From: an uncultured virus (IMG/VR IMGVR_UViG_3300037493_001250)
Lineage: Duplodnaviria; Heunggongvirae; Uroviricota; Caudoviricetes
IMG/VR virus record: IMGVR_UViG_3300037493_001250
Strand: one strand, 5' to 3'
Length of the DNA stretch: 64,000 nucleotides
Positions 9,080-62,276 of this stretch are shown here, in pieces. Position 1 is the first letter of the stretch, and every line of letters starts with the position of its first letter. The position numbers and the translations under genes were made by a program. Under the pieces are notes generated by a model. The model made no database searches and was not told the origin of the DNA. It saw nothing but the letters and a program-made list of their open reading frames with translations.

Positions 9080-9577
9080 ATGATAACACCTAAAAAACTA
9101 AACAAAGGGGCGGTTCAGTCCCTTTCGCAAAGATTAAAAGATGAGCAGACCGCTTATCGTTTGTACAGATACTTTTCAAATTGCCTAAGAAACAGTGGAT
9201 ATCTAATAGCTGCTAAGTACTTTGAAGGCGAAGCAATCGAAGAGCTAGAACACGCACACCTGCTTGAGAAGTATGCAACAGACTGGAACGTAGAGCTAGA
9301 GTTTCTAACTTTGGAAACTCCTGTTGAAGCAGACGGCATGGTAGAGATATTCGAAGCATCATATCTTCTAGAGTATGCTTTATTGCAAGAGTATTCTAAG
9401 AACGCAGTAGAGTGTATGGAAGATGGTGACATGAGCACGTTTAACTTCTTACAACAGTTTATTGCCATACAAACAAAAGCAGTAGCTGAATATGCTGATA
9501 AGTTGAATATGCTTGCATTGTTTGACCAAACCGACATGGATTGGTTATTTAACTTTGAGAAGAAACTTGTTAAATAA
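9080..9577 (+). CDS. Ferritin-like protein (four-helix, ferroxidase-centre residues)
   Basis: 165 aa; DEQTAYRLY, FEGEAIEELEHA, LLEY and FLQQFIAIQ match non-haem ferritin helix motifs. Confidence 0.85.
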   Translation: MITPKKLNKGAVQSLSQRLKDEQTAYRLYRYFSNCLRNSGYLIAAKYFEGEAIEELEHAHLLEKYATDWNVELEFLTLETPVEADGMVEIFEASYLLEYALLQEYSKNAVECMEDGDMSTFNFLQQFIAIQTKAVAEYADKLNMLALFDQTDMDWLFNFEKKLVK

Positions 9578-9583
9578 TTTGCT

Positions 9584-9591
9584 TATATTTG
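9584..9591 (+). promoter_or_regulatory. Bacteroidetes -7 promoter element (TATATTTG), 4 nt before the ATG
   Basis: Matches TAnnTTTG; intergenic. Confidence 0.65.
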
Positions 9592-9595
9592 CAAT

Positions 9596-10507
9596 ATGGC
9601 ACTTGATGTAAACTATACGTATAGTATCTATAACTCTGAAGGGAATAAAATGGTATTCGTAGATACCACCCCTCCCTATTCTGCAAATGAAACAGGGGGT
9701 TATGGCTCACCTAATATTACAAGGGCACAAGTGTCAATGGTAAGAATCCAATTTGGTAACTTCCCTGATATAACTGCACAAACAACAAAGATAGCAGGAG
9801 AAACACTTGTTCAGTATCGTAAGTACATTAAGACTACTGGTGCTGCACAAACCTATGACAATAAGGTTGTTGAGTCTGGAGATGTTTATATCCCTTTCTT
9901 AACAAGCACAACAGTTATTGTAGGTGATGTATTCCAAGACTTAGGTTACTATGTACCTTACGTGCCTGTAGCATCATTCTTGCCTACAACAAATAGCACT
10001 CCTTATATCTTAAGTATCACACAGGTAGGACTTGCAGCCACTAACGAAACAATAACGGACTTAGTATGGGACTTACAATATGAAGTATATGGGATAGCAA
10101 CAGGCACTACCTTTACAAGTGTGCAAGGGCAACAATACATTGTAGTAAGCGGTGGTACTGCTATACAGAGTGGTAACATATATCGTGTAGGAGAAGTGTT
10201 TGTAGGTAACGTAACGGCTGTTACGTTCACAGGTGGTGCAACAGTAGCCCCATTAAGGAGTACAACTGAGAAGACGTTTGTAACTGATTATAACTTAAGG
10301 TTAGCCATTTACAATTTGCAGTCTGAGCGTTTAGCCAATCCGTGTGCGTGTCAAAGTGATAGTGACATACAAATAGCCAAGCTGTACAATTTATTAGACT
10401 TTTTAAGTTACCAACAATACACGAATGCAGTAAGCTTCCAACAAGCTACAGACTTGCTAGAGTTTGGTATGGTACAAGTTTCACAAATTAAAAATCTACC
10501 TTGCTAA
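9596..10507 (+). CDS. Virion structural protein (paralog of 23300-24154)
   Basis: Beta-rich, T/V/Y-rich; shares YGSPN and YRVG(E/D)V motifs and a helical C-terminus with 23300-24154. Confidence 0.6.
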   Translation: MALDVNYTYSIYNSEGNKMVFVDTTPPYSANETGGYGSPNITRAQVSMVRIQFGNFPDITAQTTKIAGETLVQYRKYIKTTGAAQTYDNKVVESGDVYIPFLTSTTVIVGDVFQDLGYYVPYVPVASFLPTTNSTPYILSITQVGLAATNETITDLVWDLQYEVYGIATGTTFTSVQGQQYIVVSGGTAIQSGNIYRVGEVFVGNVTAVTFTGGATVAPLRSTTEKTFVTDYNLRLAIYNLQSERLANPCACQSDSDIQIAKLYNLLDFLSYQQYTNAVSFQQATDLLEFGMVQVSQIKNLPC

Positions 10508-10743
10508 TGTATTCATTAAGAACAGAGACATATAGAAGAGCGACATTTGACAAAGTTTGTACGACATTTGTAAAGAACATGTTTAACTACGTATCAGATG
10601 CGAGTTATACAACTATTAAGCCGTTAGATGTAAATTTAACAACACTGATGATAGACTACTTAGACTTTGCAATACAAGCAGAAGATGGCAACACAGCACT
10701 ACAAGACAAAGCATTAGACACAATAATAATTAGCGTAAAATAA
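10507..10743 (+). CDS. Hypothetical protein
   Basis: ATG overlaps the upstream TAA; its stop overlaps the next ATG (translational coupling). Confidence 0.6.
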   Translation: MYSLRTETYRRATFDKVCTTFVKNMFNYVSDASYTTIKPLDVNLTTLMIDYLDFAIQAEDGNTALQDKALDTIIISVK

Positions 10744-11423
10744 TGATACCACAATTAAAGAGTATATTTAACCAAAACCAATTAACATCACTAGTTAACT
10801 TATTAACTCAAACGGTTAACACATTAATTGCAGGTAAAGAAGATGTAGCTAACAAGCAGAATAGTTTAGCCGCTGACGTAACAAACACAAAGTATCCAAC
10901 TGTAACAGCCGTGAACACGGGATTAGCTTTAAAGCTAAATTTAACTGGTGGAACAATGTCGGGTGCTATTGCAATGGGTACTTCTAAGATTACGGGATTA
11001 GGTAATCCTACACTTGCACAGGATGCCGCAACTAAAACATACGTTGATACAGCGGCATCAACAGCAGAAGCTAATGCTAACAATTATGCAGATATTACTA
11101 AACAACCCTTGTTTGATTATAGCCTCTCAGTATCAGGGGTTACTGCTGTAACTATGAATGGGGTTCAAGGTGGAACTGCTACTTTTACACAAGTAGTTGC
11201 TAAAGAATCAACACAATATTTTAGAATAAATTCTGACCAAATATCAGCTACATCTAAAATTATTGTTACTTTAGTCTATGATGGTAATGGTTATCCAATT
11301 ATTGCAAGCCAAAAAATAGCAGGAGGTAAGGTAGATATATTAGTAGTTAATCCTGATATCCTTGGTACAGGTGGAACTGATACAAGTGCAAATATTTTAA
11401 TCCAATACCAAATAGTAGGGTAA
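10743..11423 (+). CDS. Short fibre-like structural protein
   Basis: KEDVANK...KYPTVTAV and TGGTMSGAIAMGTSKITGLGNPT..QDAATKTYVD segments typical of phage fibre shafts. Confidence 0.65.
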   Translation: MIPQLKSIFNQNQLTSLVNLLTQTVNTLIAGKEDVANKQNSLAADVTNTKYPTVTAVNTGLALKLNLTGGTMSGAIAMGTSKITGLGNPTLAQDAATKTYVDTAASTAEANANNYADITKQPLFDYSLSVSGVTAVTMNGVQGGTATFTQVVAKESTQYFRINSDQISATSKIIVTLVYDGNGYPIIASQKIAGGKVDILVVNPDILGTGGTDTSANILIQYQIVG

Positions 11424-11719
11424 TGAGAAACACATTAGCGGGTACAAAGAAGGGTAACTCCCGTAGTGCTAATTTCTATCACGAAAACAGAGAGGCTGCA
11501 AAAAAGAAAGCAGACTACGATAAGAAGTACCATGCTACCGAGGAACGTAAGCAATACAGAGCTGAACTAAATAAGGCTAATAGAAGTGCAGGAACATATG
11601 GAAAGATGTCTGAAATGGGAAAGGACAGAAGCCATACTAAAGACGGAAAGCTAGTATTAGAAAGCAGTTCACGAAATCGAGCAAGAAACGGGTCAGGGAA
11701 AGGCTCAACAAGAAAATAG
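11423..11719 (+). CDS. Small basic protein with a degenerate HNH-like motif
   Basis: K/R-rich; KDRSHTKDGKLVLESSSRNRARNG; lies before the terminase genes. Confidence 0.55.
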   Translation: MRNTLAGTKKGNSRSANFYHENREAAKKKADYDKKYHATEERKQYRAELNKANRSAGTYGKMSEMGKDRSHTKDGKLVLESSSRNRARNGSGKGSTRK

Positions 11720-11724
11720 GTAAT

Positions 11725-16091: not shown

Positions 16092-16119
16092 AAAAGCCAA
16101 CTTAATCGTTGGCTTTTTT
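16092..16119. terminator. Bidirectional rho-independent terminator
   Basis: AAAAGCCAAC-TTAATC-GTTGGCTTTTTT between convergent genes. Confidence 0.8.
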
Positions 16120-16323
16120 GTTTTGTAGTTTAATAATTTCTTTGGTTACATCCCCACGTAACTTATTTGGGTTTGTGGTTATCTCAAGCCAAAAGTTATA
16201 ACAATAAATTAGAAAGTCTGAATCAGACATACCCATTTCGGATGCGTATGTTTTCATGGTCTGTTTAAATGTAGGTATAGTATATACCCTAATCTCTGCT
16301 TTTCTCTTTACTTTTTCCTGCAT
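16102..16323 (-). CDS. Small ribbon-helix-helix-like regulator
   Basis: AEIRVYT strand then helices (FKQTMKTYASEMGMSDSDFLI); own -7 element at 16369-16376 on the minus strand; start revised to the ATG at 16323. Confidence 0.5.
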   Translation of the reverse strand: MQEKVKRKAEIRVYTIPTFKQTMKTYASEMGMSDSDFLIYCYNFWLEITTNPNKLRGDVTKEIIKLQNKKAND

Positions 16324-16378: not shown

Positions 16379-16408
16379 ATTTATATTGTTTCTAAACAAT
16401 TATTTTTG
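16379..16408 (+). promoter_or_regulatory. Promoter of the scaffold/capsid operon with an upstream Fur-box-like palindrome
   Basis: ATTTATATTGTTTCTAAAC (16379-16397), then TATTTTTG (16401-16408). Confidence 0.5.
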
Positions 16409-17532: not shown

Positions 17533-18876
17533 ATGGCATTTCCAAATTCAACATTTATCGACCCGAATTTACCGTTAGTATCGGTATTTACGGATTACGG
17601 TATCAACGAGCGTCAAGTAGAGCCTCTTGTACCGAAGTTAGCTCCTGCGTTTTCACGTAGTGTTATCTCAACTATTGCCGAGCAAATTGGTAAACCCCAA
17701 TTAGTAAGTGCAAAAACTCCTATCTTCCAAATCTATCGTCAACCAAATGATTGGGCTGCTGCAACAATTGCAAGCCGTACAGCTGTTGGAACTGACTTAG
17801 TATTAGGATGGTCTGACCCTACCTTCCAAGCTATTCGTGTTGGTAACATGACACAATCTAAAAGCGGTGCTTTAGGTATTGTTAAAAGTGCATCAGCAGG
17901 AACAGCAACTATCGGTTTCTTATCAAACCCTAATGGTGCAACTGCATTTGGTGCAAGTGATTTTGCAACTGGAGAATTAGCATCTGATAGAGGAGACGTT
18001 ACAGACCGTGACAATCGTTTAAGCAAGAGCACTTTCTTTACTATGCCTGTGCCTTACCAAAACATTGTAAGTTCTATCTCTGATACTACTACTGTTAACT
18101 TCTCAGAAGCTAATCAGTTCACGTACTTGAAGAACATCAATGGTACTCAATACTATGCTTTGAATAAAGTAACCCAAATGTTAGGTCGTTTGCAACAAAC
18201 TTATTCAATCCGTATGGTTGGTGACATCCCTGCAAATTTCAACACATCTACCCCAGTTGGTGGTTCATTGATTTGGCAGATTAAAAATCAAGGTGGAACG
18301 TCTCGTGCAATTAATACTGCTGTGACTGAAACTGAATTTAACGAAGCAATCCAACAATACATCAACAATGGTGGTTACTCTTCTAAAGAAGTTATCATCG
18401 TTGCTGGTTCTAGCTACATCCAAGATTTGCAAAAGAACGTATTTAAGCAATACGTAACTACTGCGGGTGATACTAACGTATTAGGTGGTAAAGAAGTTAA
18501 AGGTTTGAACATTATGTCTTACTACTACTCAGGATTTACATTCCATTTAGTAATGGATGAGTTCTTGAACAACCCGAACATTTGGCAACCATCTACTTTA
18601 TTTGCAGGCGAAACTGTACGTTCTAAATCAGCGATTTGGATGAATGCAGCTCCTTGTCCTACAGAGAATGGTGGAACTTTACCTTTCGTATCTGATTACT
18701 ACTACGGTGTACCTGACATGATTGTAACCGAAGTTAAAGGTATGACAGACATGATGGGCCGCCCAGTTAAAGAAGGTGTTAATGGTAAATTAGCAAGTAC
18801 AATAGAGGTTAACTGGAACAAGACTACCCAGTTTAACAATCCTGCACAGTGCATGTTCCATTACGCTTCAGCATAA
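17533..18876 (+). CDS. Major capsid protein
   Basis: 447 aa after the scaffold; strongly biased high-expression codons (CGT, ATC, AAC, TAC); size and position fit an HK97-fold MCP. Confidence 0.75.
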   Translation: MAFPNSTFIDPNLPLVSVFTDYGINERQVEPLVPKLAPAFSRSVISTIAEQIGKPQLVSAKTPIFQIYRQPNDWAAATIASRTAVGTDLVLGWSDPTFQAIRVGNMTQSKSGALGIVKSASAGTATIGFLSNPNGATAFGASDFATGELASDRGDVTDRDNRLSKSTFFTMPVPYQNIVSSISDTTTVNFSEANQFTYLKNINGTQYYALNKVTQMLGRLQQTYSIRMVGDIPANFNTSTPVGGSLIWQIKNQGGTSRAINTAVTETEFNEAIQQYINNGGYSSKEVIIVAGSSYIQDLQKNVFKQYVTTAGDTNVLGGKEVKGLNIMSYYYSGFTFHLVMDEFLNNPNIWQPSTLFAGETVRSKSAIWMNAAPCPTENGGTLPFVSDYYYGVPDMIVTEVKGMTDMMGRPVKEGVNGKLASTIEVNWNKTTQFNNPAQCMFHYASA

Positions 18877-25063: not shown

Positions 25064-25131
25064 AAAAATATTTTTTTATTTACAAAACAAATGTAATACG
25101 ATTAATTCGATATACGCAAGTAAAAAATGTA

Positions 25132-25161
25132 ATTTAAAATCGTTCTAAATAGTTATATTTG
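25132..25161 (+). promoter_or_regulatory. Late promoter with a Fur-box-like 9-1-9 palindrome
   Basis: ATTTAAAATCGTTCTAAAT (25132-25150), then TATATTTG (25154-25161). Confidence 0.6.
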
Positions 25162-26826: not shown

Positions 26827-27495
26827 ATGATAACATCTTACATTATAGATGAACTTATACGAAGCGTAAACGCAGCCACCAATACCGCAAATGGTAAGTG
26901 GGATAGCGAGTACGTAGAAGCTTTGCTCCCACAGTTAAGGGCAGAAGCTATCATACTTTCGTATAACGGTAGCAGAACACAGGCTGCCAACAAAACAATA
27001 AGTGGACAATGGTTACAGACACTTGAGTTTACGATTGTCCCAAGCGAGCAAGATAAAGAAGCGGAGTACCTTGTAATAGATGTCCCAAGCACAGTCAGGA
27101 TAAACGACAAGACTGATGGGCTAGTATACGTTGGTAATGCACAGGAGGCAATAACCTTTAAAAGAGCATTTACTAAAACAGAAGTAGCTTACTTAAAGCA
27201 GCGTGGATTCTTGAGAGGCAAAGAAATTGTTTACATATACACGGGCGACAAGCTAGAGATATACGGCAATAAGATATTAAAAGGATTTCAGATTCAAGGG
27301 ATATTTACGAACCCAACAGAGATAGCAGGGTTCAATTGGTATAACAGCGAATACCCAGTAGATGAATCTACGATTGCAATAATGAAAGATTTGTTTATAC
27401 AAAGAGCAAGAATGGAAATGGGATTAGCACAAGATACTGTGGCTGACGGTGCTGATACATTAAGCGTTAACCCTATTAAGGCAAATACTAAATGA
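26827..27495 (+). CDS. Tail ring / tubular protein (putative)
   Basis: 222 aa; QGIFTNP...YPVD motif; synteny before the stabilisation protein. Confidence 0.55.
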   Translation: MITSYIIDELIRSVNAATNTANGKWDSEYVEALLPQLRAEAIILSYNGSRTQAANKTISGQWLQTLEFTIVPSEQDKEAEYLVIDVPSTVRINDKTDGLVYVGNAQEAITFKRAFTKTEVAYLKQRGFLRGKEIVYIYTGDKLEIYGNKILKGFQIQGIFTNPTEIAGFNWYNSEYPVDESTIAIMKDLFIQRARMEMGLAQDTVADGADTLSVNPIKANTK

Positions 27496-28166
27496 TAGAC
27501 TCAGGCATAGGAAGTTTTGAAACAACCACATTAGATGCAATATTAGCGGGAGCTAAAATGCGTTTAAGGTTGCGAGATACAACAAGCGAGGACTTGTTAC
27601 TAAAAGATGTAATTGTAGAAGGCTTAAAGAAAAGCCGTGTACCTTCTTTGTTTATAAGAAAAGAAACGTACATTGAACTAGACAACTTGGTAGCACTACT
27701 ACCATGTGACTTCGTAAAGTTTGACAAGGTAAACCCAATACGTTTAATTGATAACAACAACCAAGGCAATTGGATTATACCTCAGTTTATTGATAATACA
27801 TTCTTTAGCTACGACCCTGATGTAACTACATACGGGCCATTCGTAAGATACGGAACGGTAACACAAGTTGGAAAGTACTTGTACTTCTCAAGCGATATAT
27901 CATCACTAAGGGCAGTAATAAGCTATTTAGGAACGAATGTAGATGAAGATGGAGAGATAGTTATCCCTGAGTTAATGGATAGCGTATTGGTTGCTTATGC
28001 GTGTTGGAAGTATGGCCAGGTATATCCTGAGAGAATGCCATCAGACATTAGAAGTGCATGGGAGATGGAATACAAATTTAATAAGAAAGCCGTTAAGGGT
28101 ATTCAGAACTTGCCAAGTAGCCTTGAAACAAGGTTAAACACATGGAGAATGAACGCAATAATTTAA
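27492..28166 (+). CDS. Tail ring / tubular protein (putative)
   Basis: 224 aa; LLPCDF and ISYLGTNVDEDGEIVIPE motifs seen in crAss-like ring proteins. Confidence 0.55.
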   Translation: MIDSGIGSFETTTLDAILAGAKMRLRLRDTTSEDLLLKDVIVEGLKKSRVPSLFIRKETYIELDNLVALLPCDFVKFDKVNPIRLIDNNNQGNWIIPQFIDNTFFSYDPDVTTYGPFVRYGTVTQVGKYLYFSSDISSLRAVISYLGTNVDEDGEIVIPELMDSVLVAYACWKYGQVYPERMPSDIRSAWEMEYKFNKKAVKGIQNLPSSLETRLNTWRMNAII

Positions 28167-28170
28167 TAGT

Positions 28171-31100
28171 ATGCAAGACAACCAAAACTTTGTATTTAGA
28201 GGACTAGATAGTGACAATGATTTACGTTCAGTTAAATCAGAAAGATATATTGATGGTAACGACATAGAGCACTTTGTTGATGAAACAAATACGCTAGGTG
28301 GTATACGCAGGATGAAAGGTACAAAGTTAGGTTACACTATTCCTAATATCGTACCACAATATAGCAACTACAGATTCCCGTTTATAACAACAGGCAATAC
28401 TGATTATCGAGTAACTATAATAGCACCTTATTATCTTCAGTTTACAATAGTTAATGTACCTCCAACTACAACAGGGGTAAGTAATTTGGGTACTGCTTTG
28501 GAGGGTAACATTGTATTTACAAGTACTTTTACAGACACTTTAGGTGAACAATCAGCAGCACTTTCAAATGGTGCTTTTAGATTAGATATCAATATAACTG
28601 GAAGCCTTACTATTACTGTTGAAACATCACCAACAGGCGCAGATGATTGGGTTATACAGCCATTTATACTTTTACAAGAGCCAATAAGCTACACAGCAGA
28701 GATGCAACCGCTTTCAACCGCTTTAGTAGGTGACAAGCAATTTGTATTAAGCAAGGCAATTGGTCAAGGATATTGCGAGATAGGCTGTGCTGTAAGAAAT
28801 ATAAGCGGAAATTGGACATACACAAGACTACTAGGTAGCACAAAGTTGAACTTTACTACTACAGAAGTAATTGATATGCGTGCTGAAGTATTAGGTAATG
28901 ATACAATAGGCGTGTATTGGGTAGACAATACCAATAAGCCAAAAGTATTTTATTGCAATAACAATTTAAGTGTATCCGTATTCAGGTATTTTTGGGGGGA
29001 GGTTATTAGCGGACTTCAAGGTGTTTATCTTAACAAGTTTGGTACGTATAATCTTAACAACGTAGACGTACAAACTAACTTGCAGATATTTAACAACAAA
29101 GCACTTGTAGTAATTGACAGACAAATAGCTACAGGCGGCTCGTTAAAGAGTGGAGGTAAAAGATACTATGTAAGGTTCGGTGTAAATGGTACAGAGAACA
29201 CAACACCATTCAACGACATAGGCGAGTACACCATTGTTTACAAGGCAGATAACCAAGCACCAAGGAATGCGGTTAAGATAAAAGGAGATATAACTCCTGA
29301 GACAACTACCAAGCAAATAGTATTGAAGGTAAGCAACTGCATGGCAGATGTGTTTAACTTTTTAGAATTAGTTTGCGTAGAATATGAGGGAGGCGGTACA
29401 AGTGCAATACTTGTAGACAGATACGATATTACAGCAGAGACGACTGAAATAGTACACAGTGGTAACGAGTTAGGCTCAACCCCATTTGACCCTGCTGCAA
29501 TCGTAAATGTTAAGCCCGTAATATTAACAGGCAAAACAAATGAAATCAAAAAAAACAGATACAACATAGCTAACGTAGAGATAGACGGAGACGTTGACTC
29601 TTACGCAACCATTGCAAGCAATATTACAATATCAAGCGGAAGAAAAACAATACCAAGAGTAGGAGAAATTTACACGGGGACTACTAGTACAACAGAAGCT
29701 TTTAAAGCCTATAATTTTGATATATCAACAAGTAATATAAATAGTGGAGCTTTAATCATAAGCGGAGTTTTGTTTAGTGGAGACCCTGATGTTATTGTTA
29801 ATAATCCGTTTGGAGTTTTTTCAACTACCCCACCAAATGCTGGTGTTTATACGGCTAATTCATCAACTTTTGGAGTAAACCAAATACTTCTTAATTTATA
29901 CATATATGGCAATATTGCACCAGATGATAGCAATTTTGCAAGAGTAATAGTATATCAATTAAATGCTGATAATACTCAAAAAGCAGTAATAGCTGATATA
30001 CAAAATAATCAGAACCTTCAGGCTGTACAAATAATAGGGAACTATTCATACAATGTAAATATAGGTGTAGGTGAAAAAATAAGAGTAGATTATTTTATAC
30101 AAGGTAGAGCTAATTGGATTATAAAATCTAGTGGATTCTCAGCATTAATTGGTCAAGTTGATAGCTTTAACTTTGGAAAGCAATTAGCTGAAAATGAATA
30201 TCAAAAAGCAGAAAACGTAGCTAACAACATGGGGTATATGCTTTACGAAGAGTACCCATACTATATTAAGTTCCATAAGAAAAGTGGATACACAACATCC
30301 CCTTACTACATAGGTACGCATACGATTAAGCCAAGTGATTTTAGCACATTTGTTGCAGGGTATGGAATAGACGTAGAGCTAACAAACTCTAGTGGAAATC
30401 CATGGGTTTACCATCCCGTATTTACTAATATAGATGTTACAAGTATAAGAAATGAAATCGTAGGTTTCAGTTTTTGGAGAGGTGATATAACTAACCCCAA
30501 AGTAATTGCCTGTGGTATTAACTTAATGGCAAACGAAATAGCAGCTGAGGGTTACTACACAGGTTTTTACGCTTCAAATCCAATAGGTACTTTATACGGT
30601 ACTGCTTTTCCTACATCATTTGACCCCGTAAGAAGATACTCAGGATTTATAGCACCTGATAATCTTGTAAGAGATGGCGAGTTAGTACGATTCCAAACAG
30701 GAGATAAGATGTACATTGCAGGACAGCCAACAATATTCGCAGCATCTGCTAATAACAATATTGCATCAGCAATAGGCCAAAGGTTGGGTAGTTTTGTAGA
30801 ATTTACAGGATATTGTCCACGAGCAACACAAGCCGCAAATAATTCTCCTACTGTGCTTGAAGATGCCGTATTTACACCGTTTAGAGAGACAAGTGATAGG
30901 TTCATTTATAATACTCTTTCAGGAATTTCAAACCCTACTAAGTTAGTCTTAAATAAGGCCGACACATTTAGGCCATCAATGGATACAGCTGCTTTAGCGG
31001 TATCTTTTTTTGACCCACAAGCCACAGTAACTGCAAGAACATCTGAAGATTATGGCGTTTATTTAGGATACTATTACAGAGCAAGCAACACCTTAGATAT

Positions 31101-32697
31101 TGAGAATATTAATGTAGTTGATACTAACTCATACTATAACCTAACAGATTCAGATGGTGGAATTATTAATAATATTTCCGTATTTGGTGGAGACACTTAT
31201 ATACAGAAAAGTTATTTAAGACTATTGTATTCAGCAGCCGCACCAGGCACAACAAACGTAACAACTGCAACTAAATATGAAAGTTTTATTTCTTTCTACA
31301 CTCAGAACAGGTTTAATACACAGATGCGTAGGACTTCTGATGAAGGTTGCGTATTATTTACTGCTGATGCCGAAAGTATAGCACAGTATTTAGATGATGC
31401 GAACGAGGAGTTCTATTTAATTGACGAAGGGTACAGCCAACAAACAAATAAATTAACACGCAGTAAGCCTTATAACGATAAGTTAAAGGTGCAAGTAAAG
31501 TTCCCAACAAGGATATACTATACAGCACAACGCCCAACAGGTAGTAGCTATGATAGTTTTAGGGATATTGCACCATTAGACTTTAAAGATTTAGATGGTA
31601 AGAACGGAATGATAAGTGCATTGTACGATATTAACGATACAATGATAGCTATGCAGAAGTTTGCGGTATCTGTATTGCCATATCAAACTGACGTATTGTT
31701 AAGGTCAGATGCAGGTGCAGAGATATACGTAGGTAACGGAGGGGTGTATGCTCAAAGAGAAAGTATTATTGGTACTTATGGCTCTAACATACAAACTAAT
31801 TCGTTCAGAGGATTTAATAAGAATGGTAATGCTAGCTTGTATTGGTTCAGTGAGGTAACTAAGAAAGTATTTAGATACGGTAGGGATGGTATACAAGGTG
31901 TATCAGACAATGCCTTTATGCGTAACTTCTTTTTGACACGCACAAAACTTGTTGACACTGAGTTTGATATAGTAATGGGTTTTGATACCAAGAGGGATAA
32001 CCTGTGGATAACATCATATAAGTTTAAGCAAGGTGTGAGTGCATGGAATCAAGATACAGCTTATGTTGTTGGTAATGTAGTTTTATTAGGCACGGCATCA
32101 TTCTATGGTTATCCTGTATTTTACAGGTCAATACAAAATGGTACAGGTAATAATCCTGCAACAAGTCCTACATATTGGGAGCTAGTACCATTATCAGATG
32201 GTGACTACTACTCAATATTTACGATACTATTTAACGAGAAACTAAATACGTTCACAAGTCTATGCGGAGCGTTGCCAAGGAGATACTTCCAATACAACAA
32301 TGAATTGCTAGTACCTAATGTAAAGAGTGCATGGGGTAAAGTGTATGAGCTAAACAATGGTACAACCACATACTTTGATGGAGTAAACCTAGACTTCTAC
32401 GTGCAGCCTGTTGTAAACAAAATACAGAATACGACTAAGAGATTCTTAAGCATAGGTTTGAACACGGGAGAAAACCAATTAACATTCCCTACTGTAAACC
32501 TTGCAACAAAAACACAGACGAGCACATCAATTTTATTTGAGCAAAAGAATGGTAACATATTCACAGCGGTAGAACCAACTAGTACTGGAGAACCAATCAC
32601 TGGTGAGTACATGACATTTAAGATAATTTCTGCAAACGATATTACGATACTAGATGCAGTAGCTAAGATGTATTACAGACCAAGAATGCCTAGGTAA
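28171..32697 (+). CDS. Tail stabilisation / muzzle protein
   Basis: 1508 aa, beta-rich; N-terminal RGLDSDND...YIDGNDI; position after the ring proteins. Confidence 0.7.
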   Translation: MQDNQNFVFRGLDSDNDLRSVKSERYIDGNDIEHFVDETNTLGGIRRMKGTKLGYTIPNIVPQYSNYRFPFITTGNTDYRVTIIAPYYLQFTIVNVPPTTTGVSNLGTALEGNIVFTSTFTDTLGEQSAALSNGAFRLDINITGSLTITVETSPTGADDWVIQPFILLQEPISYTAEMQPLSTALVGDKQFVLSKAIGQGYCEIGCAVRNISGNWTYTRLLGSTKLNFTTTEVIDMRAEVLGNDTIGVYWVDNTNKPKVFYCNNNLSVSVFRYFWGEVISGLQGVYLNKFGTYNLNNVDVQTNLQIFNNKALVVIDRQIATGGSLKSGGKRYYVRFGVNGTENTTPFNDIGEYTIVYKADNQAPRNAVKIKGDITPETTTKQIVLKVSNCMADVFNFLELVCVEYEGGGTSAILVDRYDITAETTEIVHSGNELGSTPFDPAAIVNVKPVILTGKTNEIKKNRYNIANVEIDGDVDSYATIASNITISSGRKTIPRVGEIYTGTTSTTEAFKAYNFDISTSNINSGALIISGVLFSGDPDVIVNNPFGVFSTTPPNAGVYTANSSTFGVNQILLNLYIYGNIAPDDSNFARVIVYQLNADNTQKAVIADIQNNQNLQAVQIIGNYSYNVNIGVGEKIRVDYFIQGRANWIIKSSGFSALIGQVDSFNFGKQLAENEYQKAENVANNMGYMLYEEYPYYIKFHKKSGYTTSPYYIGTHTIKPSDFSTFVAGYGIDVELTNSSGNPWVYHPVFTNIDVTSIRNEIVGFSFWRGDITNPKVIACGINLMANEIAAEGYYTGFYASNPIGTLYGTAFPTSFDPVRRYSGFIAPDNLVRDGELVRFQTGDKMYIAGQPTIFAASANNNIASAIGQRLGSFVEFTGYCPRATQAANNSPTVLEDAVFTPFRETSDRFIYNTLSGISNPTKLVLNKADTFRPSMDTAALAVSFFDPQATVTARTSEDYGVYLGYYYRASNTLDIENINVVDTNSYYNLTDSDGGIINNISVFGGDTYIQKSYLRLLYSAAAPGTTNVTTATKYESFISFYTQNRFNTQMRRTSDEGCVLFTADAESIAQYLDDANEEFYLIDEGYSQQTNKLTRSKPYNDKLKVQVKFPTRIYYTAQRPTGSSYDSFRDIAPLDFKDLDGKNGMISALYDINDTMIAMQKFAVSVLPYQTDVLLRSDAGAEIYVGNGGVYAQRESIIGTYGSNIQTNSFRGFNKNGNASLYWFSEVTKKVFRYGRDGIQGVSDNAFMRNFFLTRTKLVDTEFDIVMGFDTKRDNLWITSYKFKQGVSAWNQDTAYVVGNVVLLGTASFYGYPVFYRSIQNGTGNNPATSPTYWELVPLSDGDYYSIFTILFNEKLNTFTSLCGALPRRYFQYNNELLVPNVKSAWGKVYELNNGTTTYFDGVNLDFYVQPVVNKIQNTTKRFLSIGLNTGENQLTFPTVNLATKTQTSTSILFEQKNGNIFTAVEPTSTGEPITGEYMTFKIISANDITILDAVAKMYYRPRMPR

Positions 32698-32704: not shown

Positions 32705-32735
32705 GTTTAAAATTATTTTAAATTACTTATATTTG
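32705..32735 (+). promoter_or_regulatory. Late promoter with a Fur-box-like palindrome
   Basis: GTTTAAAATTATTTTAAAT (32705-32723), then TATATTTG (32728-32735). Confidence 0.55.
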
Positions 32736-32750: not shown

Positions 32751-33071
32751 ATGCAAGTTTTCAGTTTAGAGCAACAAATAAGACTATTAATTAAAACCCT
32801 TCAAATGGGGTTGGGATATGAGCAAGTACCCTTAGTAATAGCGGATACGGCAACATACACAGCTCCATCAGGTAGTTTTTTCTATGCTGTTAAGGCAATG
32901 AATGGCGATGCTGTAATAAACACAGCTACTGACATCAATGGCACTACAGTGCTTGCGTCTTTTACTGTTAAAGATGGTGACGAATTAAAGTTCCCTCTTG
33001 CTACAATAAAACTTACAAGTGGTAAGTTAATCATTTACAAAGGTGTTACTATTAGTGCTTTCTTGAACTAA
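32751..33071 (+). CDS. Fibre adaptor protein (paralog of the N-terminus of 25181-26593)
   Basis: LEQQIRLLIKTLQMGLGYEQVP versus LEAQIRTLMKTVQMNLGFEQVP; KAMNGDAVI is identical. Confidence 0.7.
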   Translation: MQVFSLEQQIRLLIKTLQMGLGYEQVPLVIADTATYTAPSGSFFYAVKAMNGDAVINTATDINGTTVLASFTVKDGDELKFPLATIKLTSGKLIIYKGVTISAFLN

Positions 33072-33077
33072 TAAGCC

Positions 33078-35000: not shown

Positions 35001-35002
35001 TT

Positions 35003-35212: not shown

Positions 35213-35236
35213 CACGAGATTTAAAGTATAATTATT

Positions 35237-37385: not shown

Positions 37386-37386
37386 G

Positions 37387-40439: not shown

Positions 40440-41234
40440 TTATGATAGGTCTTTAAGTGTAATATTATTATCTCTGCACCACTCTATAGCTGTGCGTTCT
40501 GCCTCTTCATGGCATAAGGCTGCCTCACCTAATCCCATATCATCGGATGATATAAGCGTTTCATAAATACGATGGATTAAGTCTTCGAATTGTAACTCTG
40601 TAATTTGTGTCATAATTATTGATTGTAAAATTTCTAAACAAAGTTGTTCGGGTATTTTTGATCTTTCATAACTACCCTTTTTACCTTGTGTACCAGTTTG
40701 ACTACCCCTTGGAGCAGGTTGGTGATGGCAATTTTTATTACCATTGTGACAGATTGGTCTTGGTATCCATTCTTGGCTATTAGTCCAAATATCTGTAGGC
40801 TTTGCTCTGTTGTCACCATATTGGCAATACCATACTGTGTGCCTTTTAAACTCTTGCATGAAAGGCATTTTACGAAGCATACCCCTTGGATTTTCAATAA
40901 AGTATACCATATTAGGATTAATCAACAGCCAATCATTAATAACACTTATAAAGTGTTGGTTTACGTTGTCGCATTTTTTAGCGTAATCACTTTTTGGCTC
41001 AGTGCCATTGCGGTGCGTGCTTATGGCTGCAACGGTGTATGTGGTACAATCAGGAGATGCCCAAACAAAGTCAGGCACGAATGGCACATCACTTGTTTTT
41101 AATTCGCCAATATCAATAGCTAAATCAATGCCTTCAAAGTTTTGCCAATCAACTGAAAACACATTGTATTTGAGTTGTTCTGCTAATTTACCAATGGATC
41201 TGCTACCTGCAAATAGTTCTAATACGTTTTTCAT
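40440..41234 (-). CDS. DNA cytosine-5 methyltransferase with an in-frame C-terminal appendage
   Basis: VLELFAGS (motif I), WASPDCT (catalytic), FIENP, KPTDIW; internal AATAATT-ATG at 40613. Confidence 0.8.
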   Translation of the reverse strand: MKNVLELFAGSRSIGKLAEQLKYNVFSVDWQNFEGIDLAIDIGELKTSDVPFVPDFVWASPDCTTYTVAAISTHRNGTEPKSDYAKKCDNVNQHFISVINDWLLINPNMVYFIENPRGMLRKMPFMQEFKRHTVWYCQYGDNRAKPTDIWTNSQEWIPRPICHNGNKNCHHQPAPRGSQTGTQGKKGSYERSKIPEQLCLEILQSIIMTQITELQFEDLIHRIYETLISSDDMGLGEAALCHEEAERTAIEWCRDNNITLKDLS

Positions 41235-41243
41235 TTGTATTAA

Positions 41244-41447
41244 TTATTTAATGCGTGTGTATCTTTCTGATGAGGTATCCCATTCGTCACCTACATCGCA
41301 GTTCTCTGCCCAGGATAGTAACGTGTCACCATCATCGTTTATCTCTACATCATCAGAGTCATCTTGCGGTAAGCCCGCAAATTCAAATACGGCTTTGTAG
41401 CCACGACCTGATTTGTCAATCCAAAAATATTGTCTTTCGTCTTGCAT
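41244..41447 (-). CDS. Hypothetical acidic protein
   Basis: Early cluster ORF. Confidence 0.55.
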   Translation of the reverse strand: MQDERQYFWIDKSGRGYKAVFEFAGLPQDDSDDVEINDDGDTLLSWAENCDVGDEWDTSSERYTRIK

Positions 41448-41451
41448 AGTT

Positions 41452-41652
41452 TTATAATTTATTAATGTTACATTCTTCTATTTTAGTAAGGTAGTAGTCA
41501 TACCATTGGTTGAATCTTTCTTGTATTTCATCGGTGTAATTCTCACCATCATACATTTCATCTTCATTGTTGCATATGTCACCTGAGTCATAAAGTGTTC
41601 TATCATGTGCAAGTTCAGATGCTAATTCGATTGCGTTGATTGTAATATTCAT
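41452..41652 (-). CDS. Hypothetical acidic protein
   Basis: INAIELASELAH...FNQWYDYY. Confidence 0.6.
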   Translation of the reverse strand: MNITINAIELASELAHDRTLYDSGDICNNEDEMYDGENYTDEIQERFNQWYDYYLTKIEECNINKL

Positions 41653-41656
41653 AATG

Positions 41657-41878
41657 TTATTTATTAGTTGTTGTGTGCTTTAATCTATTTACTCCCGCTA
41701 ACCTTGCATTTACCTTTTCTATTACTTCTTCGTAGCTTTCTTGTACTTCAAAGTATCCATTGTTATTCCACCCGACTACGCAAGTTTGGTCTTTATCGTC
41801 AACAAATACTCTTTTTAATTCGTTGATGTTGCCAATAAATCTTTTACCTTTTAGGTCTGTTAATTCAATAAAGTTCAT
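41657..41878 (-). CDS. Hypothetical protein (FlbD-like small beta fold)
   Basis: MNFIELT...INE...EVQESYEEVIEKV pattern; start revised. Confidence 0.5.
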   Translation of the reverse strand: MNFIELTDLKGKRFIGNINELKRVFVDDKDQTCVVGWNNNGYFEVQESYEEVIEKVNARLAGVNRLKHTTTNK

Positions 41879-41900
41879 AATGTTGTTTGTTAAGGGTTGT

Positions 41901-42428
41901 TTATTTTTTATATCTTTTAAAGGTATTAATAATTTGTTCTGATATAACATCAAAAAGATTGCTATCAGTTACATCTATATGATGATATTTTAATTCGTAA
42001 GCAAACCCAGGCTTGCTTAAGCCTTGAATTCTTTTAATATTTGCGTGTATAGATTTAACATAAAAATCAATTGATACTTCACCATCTGAAACCGTGTTAT
42101 CTTTAAATTGAGGAAAGATAATTTTGAAATCACGAGTGCTTGTGTATGCTCCATTTGTTAAACTACCATTACTATACTTGAAGTTTAAGCCAAGGCTATC
42201 CGTTAATTCTTTAACTTGACTGCATAAGTCAGCAAATAAAGCATTGTTGGCAATCTCGTAGGCTTCGGTCATCGTCTTGAACTCGGAAACCTCATCGTCA
42301 AATGCTTTTAACTCACCCATAATTTTGCGAGCTAATGCATTTGGGGATGTGTCTGTAAACTTAGAATTAAATGATTCAAAGTTTGATGTAATTGAATTAA
42401 TTACTGATTGTTGAGTGCTTGTAATCAT
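41901..42428 (-). CDS. Hypothetical protein
   Basis: Start revised to MITSTQQ after an AATAACAAC leader. Confidence 0.6.
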   Translation of the reverse strand: MITSTQQSVINSITSNFESFNSKFTDTSPNALARKIMGELKAFDDEVSEFKTMTEAYEIANNALFADLCSQVKELTDSLGLNFKYSNGSLTNGAYTSTRDFKIIFPQFKDNTVSDGEVSIDFYVKSIHANIKRIQGLSKPGFAYELKYHHIDVTDSNLFDVISEQIINTFKRYKK

Positions 42429-43405: not shown

Positions 43406-44119
43406 TTAATTATTAATTTGTATTACGAAATTTGTATCATCTTTCTTGCCTCTACCTTTAGCAGTCAAGCCTACAATAACGTTGGTAGGGTCAAGGTAGC
43501 GTAGGTCATTGATGTCACCATTGATAACTGGATAACCTAAGTATGTATCAGGCAATTGATTGAATACTACGGCAACATTACCGCCTAACTCTAAGAACTT
43601 GCGACACTCAGCGTCATTGGTCTCGGATCGTGAGAATGTAAGACTATACTTGCTGTCAAGGTAAACAATGGCACGCTTGTAATTCTTAGTGTAATCGTAG
43701 AACGTAAGGTGCGTGAACTCTGTGAGTATATCTTTGTCAATCTTAAGTTTGAATAGCATGATAAAGTCAAGGTCAGATGTACCATTGAGGCGAATAGCTA
43801 TGCTACGATTGTCAAGCATACCTTCTGCATTGATAAGGTATAACTCACGATACAATTGTGTAAGAAAGCCTACGGTATCTGAGAAAAACCAGTCTGTCTT
43901 ACGTTGACGAGCAGCCTGCACATTACTAAACTTGCCCATACCTGCGGTATTGAGACAAGCAGCTGCACATCCTGCGGATGCATGACCGCATACATTCTTA
44001 CCGAATGAATTAAGTTTGTGTGGTGATAGATGCAAGATATACGACTCTGCGATATCTTGGCTTTTAGCAGTCTTAACATTGTTACTGCCATGTGTGAGTA
44101 GTTGCTTTTTAAACTTCAT
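43406..44119 (-). CDS. GP88-like protein (radical-SAM-related, Cys cluster)
   Basis: VCGHASAGCAAACL, IRLNGTSD, FYDYTK, LTFSRSE and INGDINDLRYLD motifs. Confidence 0.75.
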   Translation of the reverse strand: MKFKKQLLTHGSNNVKTAKSQDIAESYILHLSPHKLNSFGKNVCGHASAGCAAACLNTAGMGKFSNVQAARQRKTDWFFSDTVGFLTQLYRELYLINAEGMLDNRSIAIRLNGTSDLDFIMLFKLKIDKDILTEFTHLTFYDYTKNYKRAIVYLDSKYSLTFSRSETNDAECRKFLELGGNVAVVFNQLPDTYLGYPVINGDINDLRYLDPTNVIVGLTAKGRGKKDDTNFVIQINN

Positions 44120-47762: not shown

Positions 47763-47843
47763 ATTTAGAATCATTCTGGATAAGGTATGTACTATCAAAG
47801 CTTTAAACTTTACTTATTCTTATTTAGACTAAATACAGATAAG
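47763..47843. promoter_or_regulatory. Two Fur-box-like palindromes
   Basis: ATTTAGAATCATTCTGGAT (47763-47781) and CTTATTTAGACTAAATACAGATAAG (47819-47843). Confidence 0.5.
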
Positions 47844-47862: not shown

Positions 47863-47878
47863 TGTTCCACGTGAAACA
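47863..47878. other. parS: parS-like centromere site
   Basis: TGTTCCACGTGAAACA matches the chromosomal parS consensus TGTTNCACGTGAAACA; half-sites at 48164, 48234 and 46892. Confidence 0.75.
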
Positions 47879-49024: not shown

Positions 49025-49351
49025 TCATAACTTTATTCTGTAGTCTAAATGTATGTTGTCCTCATCCATCATGTTGTTACAGGCATTTATATTGAGCTTG
49101 TAAAATGATTCCCTTGGAATATCCATTAATGAAAACATCTTCTCCACATTGCAGATCGTTGGCCTGTCCTCGTAAACCAAACACTTGTTATCCCTATCTA
49201 GCATCTCACACTTGCCAAGATCATTATAACCATACGGAAAGTGCATCTCATCATCTTCAGGAAGATCATTCAATCCCCATGATTCAACAATGTTACCTAT
49301 CCTATGACAACACGCTCCACATCCTGTGCATGGGTAACTTGTTTCTTCCAT
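49025..49351 (-). CDS. YkgJ / CxxCxxCC cysteine-cluster (putative Fe-S or Zn) protein
   Basis: CTGCGACC...KCEML...CLVYEDRPTIC. Confidence 0.8.
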   Translation of the reverse strand: MEETSYPCTGCGACCHRIGNIVESWGLNDLPEDDEMHFPYGYNDLGKCEMLDRDNKCLVYEDRPTICNVEKMFSLMDIPRESFYKLNINACNNMMDEDNIHLDYRIKL

Positions 49352-49366
49352 ATCTTTAATTCTTTG

Positions 49367-49493
49367 CAGTCAGAATCCGATTCGAACGGATACCTATTAT
49401 TGGATTTCTCCTAAGTATGAGGTGTGCTTACGATTATAGTTTCAAATCTTTATCACTCCATCCTATAGCGTCTACCATTTCCGCCACCTGACT
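49367..49493 (-). ncRNA. tRNA-like RNA with an expanded centre (no canonical anticodon loop)
   Basis: Acceptor AGTCAGG/TCTGACT, D-arm GGCGGAAATGGTAGACGC, T-arm ATCCG-TTCGAAT-CGGAT; 127 nt. Confidence 0.7.
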
Positions 49494-49586
49494 GTATTTA
49501 ATTAATAGGCATTAATGTACTATGTTGGGACTTAACCTCACTTCTTCCATATATTTACTACTTTATCTCCTATTAATTAAAATGTT

Positions 49587-52136: not shown

Positions 52137-52475
52137 TTACAAATTTAACGATTTTTTTCTATTTTCTTTAGCCCATTCTGCACAAAATGCGTATATGTCA
52201 AATATATCTTCTCCGAAAGACATTGCAAACATATTAAAATGCCCTAGGTTAACAGTCCTATGGTGCAGGCTTACCTCTAAGTTCCGTACAAAACATCTGC
52301 TAAACCTTACATCATACTCATCGTTTATCTTTTTTATCCACCCTGATATAGACATACCATTAGTGTGTATCCTGTCTCTAAGGTACGCAGCAAGGGCAGG
52401 ATAGGCATAGTCTTCACCAAGAATAAAGCTTTTACGGGCCTCAATAGTCTTCTTATTAAATTGTAACCTACTCAT
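52137..52475 (-). CDS. Possible HTH DNA-binding protein
   Basis: LAAYLRDRI..GMSISGW....FSRCFVRNLE pattern resembles an Xre-type HTH. Confidence 0.4.
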   Translation of the reverse strand: MSRLQFNKKTIEARKSFILGEDYAYPALAAYLRDRIHTNGMSISGWIKKINDEYDVRFSRCFVRNLEVSLHHRTVNLGHFNMFAMSFGEDIFDIYAFCAEWAKENRKKSLNL

Positions 52476-52968
52476 ACATAACGCTAAATTCTGTCTTTAT
52501 AGCTTCATAAAGTATATGGTAAGTATCCTTCATGTTCTTATCAACATCAATTAAGTCGTTAATCTTGTTGATTCCAGAGATAACTGTTGAATGGTCTCTA
52601 CTAAAATATTTGCCTATCCTAAGCTTTGTATGCTTGAACTCCTTGTTTGCTATCTTGTAAATTAATGCACGCTTCTCAGGCAATCTGTTAGCCCTTGATT
52701 TTGACATTAATAACTCCTTAGAGGTTTGTAAAACTTCACAAGCCTTGTTTGTTACATCATCTATTGATACAAGATAGTCATTAGTAATTAATTGTTGCTT
52801 ATATTTTAAGCTAGTGCCTGAAATGTCAATAACCATCTTACCATGAACTCCCTTAACGTAGCTCTTCAATAGCATGATGTCACTCTCAGAAAGATTAAAA
52901 AATACTTCTATGTTCTTAATGTGGTAGTTTAATGGCTTCGTCTGCGATATTATCTCCGTTTGATTCAT
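52468..52968 (-). CDS. Protein with a DnaA C-terminal (domain IV) HTH
   Basis: LMSKSR...RALIY...IGKYFSRDHSTVISGINKI; start revised to MNQTE. Confidence 0.8.
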   Translation of the reverse strand: MNQTEIISQTKPLNYHIKNIEVFFNLSESDIMLLKSYVKGVHGKMVIDISGTSLKYKQQLITNDYLVSIDDVTNKACEVLQTSKELLMSKSRANRLPEKRALIYKIANKEFKHTKLRIGKYFSRDHSTVISGINKINDLIDVDKNMKDTYHILYEAIKTEFSVMYE

Positions 52969-53179
52969 CTGTTGTTGTCTCCTCTGTTTTAAATTTAATA
53001 GCATCCTGCAATGCTAACTTATCTGTGTTACTGAACTTTTCGTTCTTCATAGCCTCTAAATCTTCAAGAGGTAGTTGCTTGAACTCTTCTAGCCTAGTGG
53101 TATACCTAAGTCTTATTTTTGGGTTAACCTGGCCCTTGATAAACATCTTAGCCATGTTTCTTCTTTGTGTTCTGTTCAT
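52916..53179 (-). CDS. Hypothetical protein
   Basis: MNRTQRR N-terminus common in phage proteins. Confidence 0.6.
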   Translation of the reverse strand: MNRTQRRNMAKMFIKGQVNPKIRLRYTTRLEEFKQLPLEDLEAMKNEKFSNTDKLALQDAIKFKTEETTTDESNGDNIADEAIKLPH

Positions 53180-61210: not shown

Positions 61211-61316
61211 AAATAAATAACATGGAACAAGCACTAACAACAACAGACTATTTAATAGCAGCACAGATTATCCAAGGAATACAACAAGACATTCAATTAG
61301 TTTCACATATACTAAG

Positions 61317-61619
61317 ATGAAAGCAGGAGACATTGTACTTTGCGTAAACGATACTAAGAGTCAAACACTTAAGGAATGGATAGATGAGTGTAACTTTCCC
61401 GTGATATGGGTAAAGAAAGACAAGAAGTACACCATACGGGAAGTACTAGAGAACGAAGGCATAGCAACAGGATTATTGCTTGAGGAGATAATTAACTTCC
61501 CTTTCTTTATCCCATTACTGAATAGAAGCCAGGAGTTAGGATATGCAGTATGGAGGTTTCGCAAAGTGCAAGAAGTAACTGACAAAGTAGAAGTAGAAAA
61601 AGAAGAAAACGTAATATGA
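61317..61619 (+). CDS. Hypothetical protein
   Basis: MKAGDIVLCVND...YTIRE...LLEEI pattern. Confidence 0.6.
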   Translation: MKAGDIVLCVNDTKSQTLKEWIDECNFPVIWVKKDKKYTIREVLENEGIATGLLLEEIINFPFFIPLLNRSQELGYAVWRFRKVQEVTDKVEVEKEENVI

Positions 61620-61849
61620 AGACAATAACAAAGTACACAGGCGACCTGAAAGAAGGAGACATGTACGAGTGTAAGACAGATGGCAATAGAGTAAGAGTTG
61701 CTAAAGTACATCAAGAGCCTAAGAACAAGGTATGGACTTGTGATTTGATTTACTCAGATAGCCAAACGAAACTAGGTAGTGAATTAAATATGCCGTGTTA
61801 CGACTTTGAGATGTTACTTCGGAAAGGACAATTTAGAAAAGTAAATTAA
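61616..61849 (+). CDS. Hypothetical protein
   Basis: Coupled; ends at a terminator. Confidence 0.55.
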   Translation: MKTITKYTGDLKEGDMYECKTDGNRVRVAKVHQEPKNKVWTCDLIYSDSQTKLGSELNMPCYDFEMLLRKGQFRKVN

Positions 61850-61889
61850 AAAAGAAAGCCCCTACATAATCAAACGTAAGGGCTTTTTT
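61848..61889. terminator. Bidirectional terminator
   Basis: AAAGCCC-CTAC...GTAA-GGGCTTTTTT between convergent genes. Confidence 0.7.
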
Positions 61890-61890
61890 G

Positions 61891-62058
61891 TTAAGAGAAC
61901 CTGTTTACCAAGATTTCATTCAAGAAATCGTTTCTTTTCAATCCCGCTTCTTTTGCATCAGTAGCTATTTTTTCTATAAGCCACATGTTGTCTTTATGTA
62001 TCCTGATGGGTATGATATCACCCTTGTATTCTTTTTTAACTTTTAATTTCTTCTCCAT
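61891..62058 (-). CDS. Ribbon-helix-helix-like regulator
   Basis: IIPIRI strand plus helices LIEKIATDAKEAGLKRNDFLNEIL; start revised. Confidence 0.6.
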   Translation of the reverse strand: MEKKLKVKKEYKGDIIPIRIHKDNMWLIEKIATDAKEAGLKRNDFLNEILVNRFS

Positions 62059-62203
62059 TTTCTTTTTTATTTTGATATGCAACATGTAACTCCTTAATAC
62101 TAGAAAGAACAAACTCAGCTTCTTTCAAAGATGCTGCTTCAATCGTAATAACGACTTTCCTTCCTGCGTATCTGTAGTGAAAAGTATACTTCTGAACTTC
62201 CAT
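62036..62203 (-). CDS. Hypothetical protein (55 aa, probably leaderless)
   Basis: Read by hand: MEVQKYTFHYRYAG...; ATG 4 nt after TACCTTTG. Confidence 0.55.
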   Translation of the reverse strand: MEVQKYTFHYRYAGRKVVITIEAASLKEAEFVLSSIKELHVAYQNKKENGEEIKS

Positions 62204-62243
62204 GCAACAAAGGTAATACTTTTAGTAATACAATCCAAATACA

Positions 62244-62276
62244 ATTTAGATTTATTATAAATTAGTTGTATATTTG
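62244..62276 (+). promoter_or_regulatory. Late promoter with a Fur-box-like palindrome
   Basis: ATTTAGATTTATTATAAAT (62244-62262), then TATATTTG (62269-62276). Confidence 0.6.

Follow-up and report, generated by a model that had tools for sequence, protein, structure and literature searches.

We analysed a DNA window of 64,000 nucleotides (i.e. the whole stretch considered here) from the IMG/VR record IMGVR_UViG_3300037493_001250, the nearly complete genome of an uncultured, short-tailed and crAss-like freshwater phage of Bacteroidota, and focused on 19-bp palindromes of 9-1-9 structure located in the promoters of its virion genes. The match of these boxes to the 19-bp consensus exceeds background. 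The palindromes are probably operators of the host regulator Fur, iron-loaded Fur acting as a partial brake on the late operons. As judged from their sequence, we consider it quite likely that host Fur binds at least the boxes at 25132 and 62244, and reasonably likely that it represses these two promoters in vivo; the chances that iron measurably alters virion output appear evenly balanced. A partial brake rather than a master switch is proposed because the boxes reach intermediate scores (14-16/18) and neither the terminase nor the portal promoter has one.

Fur-type palindromes in the virion promoters

The initial annotation had described four 19-mers in virion promoters, ending 3-6 nt upstream of the -7 element. 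All four were recovered with the positions and scores it gave (Table 1), and those at 16379, 25132, 32705 and 62244 end 3, 3, 4 and 6 nt before TAnnTTTG, respectively. Transcription start sites and promoters were inferred from consensus. A sigma-70 promoter scan is unsuited to Bacteroidota; the 20 promoter-like sites of the window are all of the host TAnnTTTG type, i.e. at the sequence level the phage uses host-type promoters throughout. No box is present at four further virion or packaging promoters (9584, 10/18; 13930, 12/18; 19950, 11/18; 21235, 10/18).

The capsid operon comprises the 16429 gene, the major capsid gene and the 18908 gene, with a terminator-like hairpin near 19918; its box is weak and lies in the narrow space that separates two divergent -7 elements. 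The tail-fibre unit starting at 32728 seems to run on into the lysis genes, and no terminator-like hairpin was found in 32751-37941. A fifth box (47763), overlooked in the initial annotation, is accompanied by weaker sites at 47822 and 47719; the group lies about 80-190 nt upstream of an early-operon -7 element (47636, minus strand), and relative G001 keeps the 47763 box at 15/18. A further 15/18 match falls inside the portal gene (14371). The distinct motif announced for replication and middle promoters, GTAWTAC, is present and fused to the -7 element at early and middle promoters. Such fused sites occur at 25095, 49770, 49955, 50803, 54171, 56339, 59532, 60277, 62215 and elsewhere; 10 were counted in the window, 14 in relative G003, 6 in G001, none in relative G004 and 9 in 800 kb of host DNA.

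Comparison with shuffled upstream regions, as suggested by the initial annotation, led to the rejection of chance. Three or more sites at 14/18 were obtained in none of 20,000 mononucleotide shuffles of the eight upstream regions and in none of 5,000 dinucleotide shuffles. Promoter-like sites of hosts (119 sites from about 1 Mb of four genomes, 118 of them from two genomes) reached 14/18 once and 15/18 never, versus four of the eight virion promoters of the window at 14/18 or more (Fisher p = 3e-5 at 14/18 and 2e-4 at 15/18). Among 630 palindromes of the same half-site composition, only one reached the observed counts, namely the real motif, itself among the 630. Five host genomes (2.7-6.3 Mb) hold 12-38 sites at 15/18 or more, with 1-19 for reversed controls, and the 64-kb window holds five. 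With a matrix built from 16 host sites, four window sites score at least 14 bits, versus four in 800 kb of host DNA.

The resemblance to the Flavobacteriales Fur box, pointed out in the initial annotation, proved to be an identity of consensus with the box printed for Riemerella anatipestifer, a member of this order (PMC5609570). In Riemerella, Fur binds boxed promoters in a Mn2+-dependent manner and these promoters are derepressed in a fur mutant (PMC7976709, PMC10986502); deletion of the box derepresses rhuH as deletion of fur does (PMC11967795). The 25132 box deviates from the hmuR site of the list in 2 of its 19 letters, and the same 19-mer stands at a TonB-receptor promoter in a host locus (L447).

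An exact-match scan of species genomes gave at least 120 stretches, of which 80 were examined; judged by their titles, 47 come from Bacteroidota, and 28 of the 47 lie beside genes of iron, haem, Fe-S or Fur-family type (TonB receptors, imelysin, HmuY, SufB, IscA, Fur-family regulators, superoxide dismutase, cytochromes, NqrA, CcmE and HemA). Among 20 further host sites (15-17/18), Fe-S assembly genes and a TonB receptor have the box on the promoter or directly behind it, and the genes for HemA, fumarase, hydrogenase and ferritin have it well upstream, from which we infer that in hosts a box on the promoter would mean repression and a box well upstream activation. Hosts were also scanned for the phage's own box-promoter geometry: the 80 loci examined, of at least 120, gave 75 genes, 37 of them named by Pfam. 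Fourteen of these 37 are of iron-acquisition type (eight TonB receptors, FeoA, three ABC solute-binding proteins for which Pfam gives no substrate, a siderophore-interacting protein and a haem oxygenase) and none is respiratory. Since iron uptake prevails among the same-geometry host genes where these are named, the phage layout points to repression by iron-loaded Fur; as read from sequence, it is the layout of host iron-uptake genes under such repression. An Irr-like reversal, i.e. repression at low iron, was considered and dropped, given that the same-geometry host genes are uptake genes and that the Riemerella data indicate repression by holo-Fur.

The commonest target of a spacer box in our scans is one or several families of 114-120-residue proteins without Pfam match, from Aquimarina, Flavobacterium and Tenacibaculum (L418, L420, L428, L430, L436, L437 and about 20 more loci).

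Recurrence in relatives and in unrelated phages

Positional conservation of the boxes was partly borne out. All close relatives (i.e. capsid identity of at least 93%) that cover 16379, 25132 or 32705 carry the box, as do two of nine distant relatives, and seven of the nine do not; no relative covering 62244 was found, and the results concern the three other boxes. The 16379 box is identical in G001, L127 and L129. The 25132 box scores 16/18 in G001, L127, L128 and L129, and only its free central base varies among five close relatives while the flanks diverge. The 32705 box of G001 differs at five letters yet reaches 16/18. As for the two distant boxed relatives, G002 (capsid identity 61%) scores 17, 17 and 16/18 at the promoters equivalent to 25132, 32705 and 16379, and L137 (39%) scores 18/18 at the ring promoter, i.e. 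at the equivalent of 25132, 16/18 at the portal and small-gene promoters, including the same place as 16379, and 15/18 at one more.

In a tree of capsid proteins, unboxed lineages stand between L137 and the window, and the boxed lineages do not form one clade, which indicates that boxes were gained or lost more than once; this points in turn to repeated selection for the wiring. L131 and L139, in which promoter coverage is poor, were treated as unboxed in this test, and the supported grouping of G003, L135 and the window, apart from L137, is independent of them. At L131 (~185-205) and G004 (~7085-7135), the promoter sequence is nearer to the E. coli-type than to the Bacteroidota Fur box, perhaps reflecting a different host or a different regulator of the Fur family.

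In viral contigs, a gene-blind scan for the box followed by a -7 element yielded 50 stretches, and none with the reversed motif. Portal, head protease, tail tube, small terminase or ring proteins account for 39 of the 46 downstream genes (six duplicate rows and four sites without a nearby gene having been removed), these 46 being non-independent, as clustering of the portals at 50% identity gives five groups, one of which contributes most rows. Unrelated siphoviruses, in few lineages, share the layout ahead of virion genes; sites of at least 15/18 number 10 in G010 (34 kb) and 8 in G012 (41.5 kb). No Fur gene was found in any of the five records G010 to G014. Without the -7 constraint, perfect boxes were found in at least 124 stretches of viral contigs; of the 80 examined, 79 are intergenic, and the genes behind them form a mixed set, mostly of unknown function, which shows that the motif is not confined to late promoters.

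Among cultured phages, 11b and phi18:1 have no site at 15/18. Cellulophaga phage phi10:1 (L204) has three intergenic 16/18 boxes (24571, 25450 and 47391), one of which lies just after the -7 element of the gene preceding the endolysin. Perfect boxes are associated with sigma-70-like promoters or GC contents of up to 58% in the viral contigs L221, L238, L256, L261, L274 and L280; phages of other phyla may use the same operator.

Mechanism, ferritin and competing explanations

According to the mechanism we propose from the host layout, iron-loaded Fur would occupy the spacer of the four late promoters and block RNA polymerase. The capsid, tail ring/muzzle, fibre/lysis and ejection operons would be held back during early infection or in carrier cells replete with iron. 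The brake would lift when free Fe(II) falls or, alternatively, as replicated genomes, each bringing at least five sites, titrate the Fur pool. Several observations weigh against control by host Fur. Four of the eight late promoters have no box, and the 16379 and 32705 boxes score lower than most host sites. Seven of nine distant relatives have no box at late promoters (two of the seven being fragments of 5 and 9 kb), and none of the three cultured phages checked has one at a capsid, portal or tail promoter. The boxes of G003 sit at non-virion promoters (6, 990, 1591, 9005 and 62968), some of them 11-35 nt upstream of the -7 element. On the host side, 38 of the 75 same-geometry genes have no Pfam name, each host has 1-6 Fur-family genes, and the Riemerella fur mutant is still strongly iron-responsive in one data set (PMC5609570).

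The initial annotation had further proposed that a phage ferritin relieves repression by lowering free iron. Its interpretation survives as far as the Flavobacteriales Fur box, the host-type position, the recurrence at distant relatives' promoters and the permutation of the genome are concerned, and not in the ferritin loop. Pfam confirmed the three genes it had named, i.e. the ferritin and the Cys-cluster genes of GP88 and CxxCxxCC type, and nothing was found that connects the two Cys-cluster proteins with the boxes. Permutation accounts well for the ends of the window: the giant gene is short of about 540 residues (in the alignment with the G003 homologue, its residue 1 corresponds to residue 544) and the 63042 gene of about 160-170, i.e. 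about 2.1 kb, compared with the 2114 bases of the 66114-base source sequence that fall outside the window; G003 has the same gene order. Ferritin thus probably ends the boxed ejection unit starting at 62269, and no convincing terminator or promoter was found between the giant gene and the ferritin gene.

The phage ferritin looks active from its sequence and predicted fold: the latter is that of a maxi-ferritin subunit with a C-terminal E helix, and the ferroxidase residues E22, Y29, E55, H58, E98 and Q131 are kept in at least 90% of 72 homologues. The positions replaced in the phage protein are those we take to be the third-site glutamates of bacterial ferritins. An alignment of the 72 sequences was too divergent for locus scans, and ferritin scans of viral and genome contigs confirmed no match; PMC5512222 makes no mention of ferritin.

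A full loop, in which ferritin from the boxed 62269 operon would lower Fe(II), inactivate Fur and lock the late genes on, would add to control by host Fur, and we regard it as unlikely. The kept ferroxidase residues, the maxi-ferritin fold and the operon continuity fit such a loop, and one host ferritin has its box well upstream (read as activation), so that the phage gene would be wired oppositely. Ferritin nevertheless follows a giant ejection gene in units without box in G003 and G013, and G010, G011, G012 and G014, two of them rated complete, have 4-10 boxes and no ferritin; moreover, ferritin comes last in a transcript inferred to be some 13 kb long and its third-site glutamates are replaced. 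In G013, a more distant crAss-like phage, ferritin (41428-41931) is wedged between two giant ejection genes. From these gene orders, ferritin seems to be a passenger of the ejection-gene cluster and not of the boxes, and it would be as likely to act as a buffer of iron or of Fenton damage, perhaps after injection as cargo, as to provide feedback.

Even less likely is an iron-gated carrier state, in which the phage would remain unintegrated with host-type parS partitioning. Iron-loaded Fur would shut the late operons and possibly drive the early operon from 47763; iron starvation, i.e. a time when neighbours would display TonB iron receptors, would open the late operons, and ferritin, perhaps co-injected, would drain Fe(II) and make the switch one-way. 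A 16-bp palindrome, which we take to be of the parS type, lies at 47863-47878 and is kept at 15/16 in G001 while its flanks diverge; the same type of pattern occurs once or twice, clustered, in four of five host genomes. Since this site is present and ParB was not detected, the phage may borrow host partitioning through it.

Another explanation is that the palindrome is the target of the small, putative ribbon-helix-helix (RHH) protein encoded at 16102-16323, which would repress its own promoter and set the timing of the late genes, any resemblance to a Fur box being incidental or inherited. A small gene stands at this position in 12 of 12 related loci; the nearest named clusters of the window protein, a lead only, are RHH_1 (38% of members), RHH_9 (100%) and ParG (17%). 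Both the 16379 and the 62244 box have an RHH-like gene facing away from them, the RHH promoter of G002 and L137 overlaps with a 16/18 box, the same RHH subgroup is found in all three boxed podovirus lineages, and the half-site spacing presumably resembles that of the P22 Arc operator. However, motif and gene do not travel together, as the complete G004 has the subgroup and no boxed late promoter, and G010 to G014 are boxed and match neither RHH profile. In addition, the window and G002/L137 have different putative recognition strands and yet share the box, and L137 matches the host consensus at 18/18. We therefore hold this explanation to be improbable. A second small RHH-like gene was noticed by eye at 61891-62058 (minus strand); the two proteins have no profile similarity to each other, and the second would be a better candidate binder of GTAWTAC, as it has a weak homologue (E 2e-4, in a small search) in G003, which shares this motif.

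It is just as improbable that another host regulator, i.e. a PerR-, Mur- or Irr-like paralogue, binds the boxes with peroxide, manganese or haem as cue. The several Fur-family genes of some hosts, the glutathione peroxidase and superoxide dismutase found among boxed host genes and the residual iron response of the Riemerella fur mutant would agree with it. The exact motif also occurs in records of rhizobia, Streptococcus and Paenibacillus, where Irr or PerR would be the binder. Conversely, box and fur deletions derepress alike, the named same-geometry host genes are mostly for iron uptake, and a single Fur-family member is found both in host G006, which has boxes, and in F. psychrophilum, for which the accessible parts of PMC9723704 and PMC9331221 give no box. 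Least probable of all is chance, promoter architecture (AT-rich spacer and -33 element) or a decayed functionless relic: the spacers are 76-92% AT, the symmetry at 16379 may stem from two back-to-back promoters and the window boxes are weaker than those of G002 and L137, but the shuffle, host-promoter and permuted-palindrome nulls, the lack of viral sites for the reversed motif (0 versus 50), the letters kept at 25132 and the scores of at least 15/18 at 32705 in both the window and G001 all speak against it.

The phage and its closest parallels

Table 1. Boxes, -7 elements and genes of the window discussed in the text
Feature	Coordinates	Strand	Remarks
Fur-type box	16379-16397	.	14/18; spacer of the capsid-operon promoter; on the opposite strand, promoter of the small RHH gene
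-7 element, capsid operon	16401-16408	+	consensus-inferred promoter
Fur-type box	25132-25150	.	16/18; highest by host-derived matrix; promoter of the 25181-ring-ring-muzzle unit
-7 element, tail ring/muzzle unit	25154-25161	+	
Fur-type box	32705-32723	.	15/18; promoter of the tail-fibre unit
-7 element, fibre/lysis unit	32728-32735	+	
Fur-type box	62244-62262	.	16/18; promoter of the ejection-protein unit ending (probably) in ferritin
-7 element, ejection-protein unit	62269-62276	+	
Fifth box, intergenic	47763-47781	.	16/18; early non-coding region
Giant putative ejection protein	1-9069	+	~540 N-terminal residues outside the window
Non-haem ferritin (Ftn type)	9080-9577	+	four-helix bundle and E helix; Pfam, predicted fold
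Small RHH-like protein	16102-16323	-	divergent from the capsid operon
Major capsid protein	17533-18876	+	predicted fold matches phicrAss001
Two crAss-type tail ring genes and muzzle gene	26827-32697	+	Pfam PF25702, PF24228 (just below cut-off), PF25731
Endolysin (peptidase M15)	36930-37385	+	probably part of the 32728 unit
Small ejection (cargo) protein	62302-63039	+	first gene of the boxed unit; homologues in G003, G004
Second putative ejection protein	63042-63998	+	truncated at the end of the window; in G004, the homologue is immediately followed by the giant gene

Besides the features of Table 1, the window contains terminase and portal genes. The language-model look-alikes of the 62302 protein, a lead only, carry T7 gp14 (11% of members) and P22 gp7 (12%); the giant protein has no Pfam or PHROG match. 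Among the 99 window proteins, no RNA polymerase, DNA polymerase, integrase, ParB or Fur gene was detected and the FUR domain is absent, the unseen 2.1 kb being accounted for by ejection genes. The early/middle region encodes two DNA methyltransferases of one family (37938-38588 and 40440-41234, minus strand), a protein with a DnaA C-terminal helix-turn-helix (52468-53004, minus strand), and the Cys-rich GP88 (43406-44119, minus strand) and CxxCxxCC (49025-49351, minus strand) proteins. A tRNA-like element (49366-49494, minus strand) has a 7-bp acceptor stem, a long insert in its centre and ends resembling D- and T-arms; in several runs, indels accumulate around it and contig depth is increased. 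It was not detected by standard ARAGORN, which found no tRNA in the window (a relaxed run gave 40 matches, i.e. noise level), or by Rfam, which had no match in the window.

Besides the possible source, four DNA runs from three studies, all of freshwater or sediment, hold at least half of the sampled words of the window; RNA runs (contigs only) share 0.05-0.18 of its words and were not used as evidence. No cultured relative was found by tblastn with terminase or ferritin in the phage collection, and a capsid scan of genome contigs confirmed no match. Compared with Crassvirales (phicrAss001), the window has in common the capsid fold, the ring and muzzle proteins and Bacteroidota-type promoters, and differs by a genome of about 66 kb in which no virion RNA polymerase or DNA polymerase was detected. 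The 3022 visible residues of the giant protein (about 540 being unseen) contain no DxDxD motif and gave no family hit for a virion RNA polymerase. As none was found, the phage is called crAss-like and is not placed as a member of Crassvirales. Its ferritin shares the fold (TM about 0.9), the E helix and the main ferroxidase residues of bacterial non-haem ferritins (FtnA/Pfr), and differs by an identity of about 25% and by a gene located among ejection-protein genes in three phage genomes.

The literature searched, outside of which lie supplements and most subscription papers, yielded no report of Fur boxes at the virion promoters of phages. New elements here are the crAss-like lineage, the apparent repeated gain or loss of boxes and a ferritin probably inside a boxed unit. 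If control by host Fur is true, phages of Bacteroidota would let a host nutrient sensor time particle building, without a phage late activator. Lysis and carbon release would then be tied to iron supply in a phylum of major degraders in lakes and seas, and a mechanism would be offered for the effects of iron limitation on burst size, which are mixed (PMC12557496).

With the Riemerella Fur regulon, the window shares the 19-bp 9-1-9 consensus, its place in the -33/-7 promoter and the geometry of iron-uptake promoters; it differs in that its boxes, putative Fur operators, reach 14-16/18 and lie on phage capsid, tail, lysis and ejection operons. The gene of Shiga toxin 1 is phage-borne and under Fur control, and the sci1 type VI secretion cluster is reportedly controlled by Fur as well. 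Both resemble the window by a Fur operator on mobile or tail-like machinery, and differ in being cargo genes or domesticated machines, whereas core virus morphogenesis genes are boxed here. The closest precedent is host LexA on a late promoter of the Bacillus thuringiensis phage GIL01, whose promoter P3 is repressed by host LexA together with phage gp7 and activated by gp6 (PMC6182141). In both cases a host global repressor (putatively so in the window) sits on a virion or lysis promoter, without evident dedicated phage repressor or integrase and with small phage DNA-binding proteins nearby. GIL01 differs in relying on LexA, i.e. on DNA damage, where Fur would report metal status in the window; the latter, a tailed crAss-like phage, has four such late promoters, and no helper proteins were identified in it.

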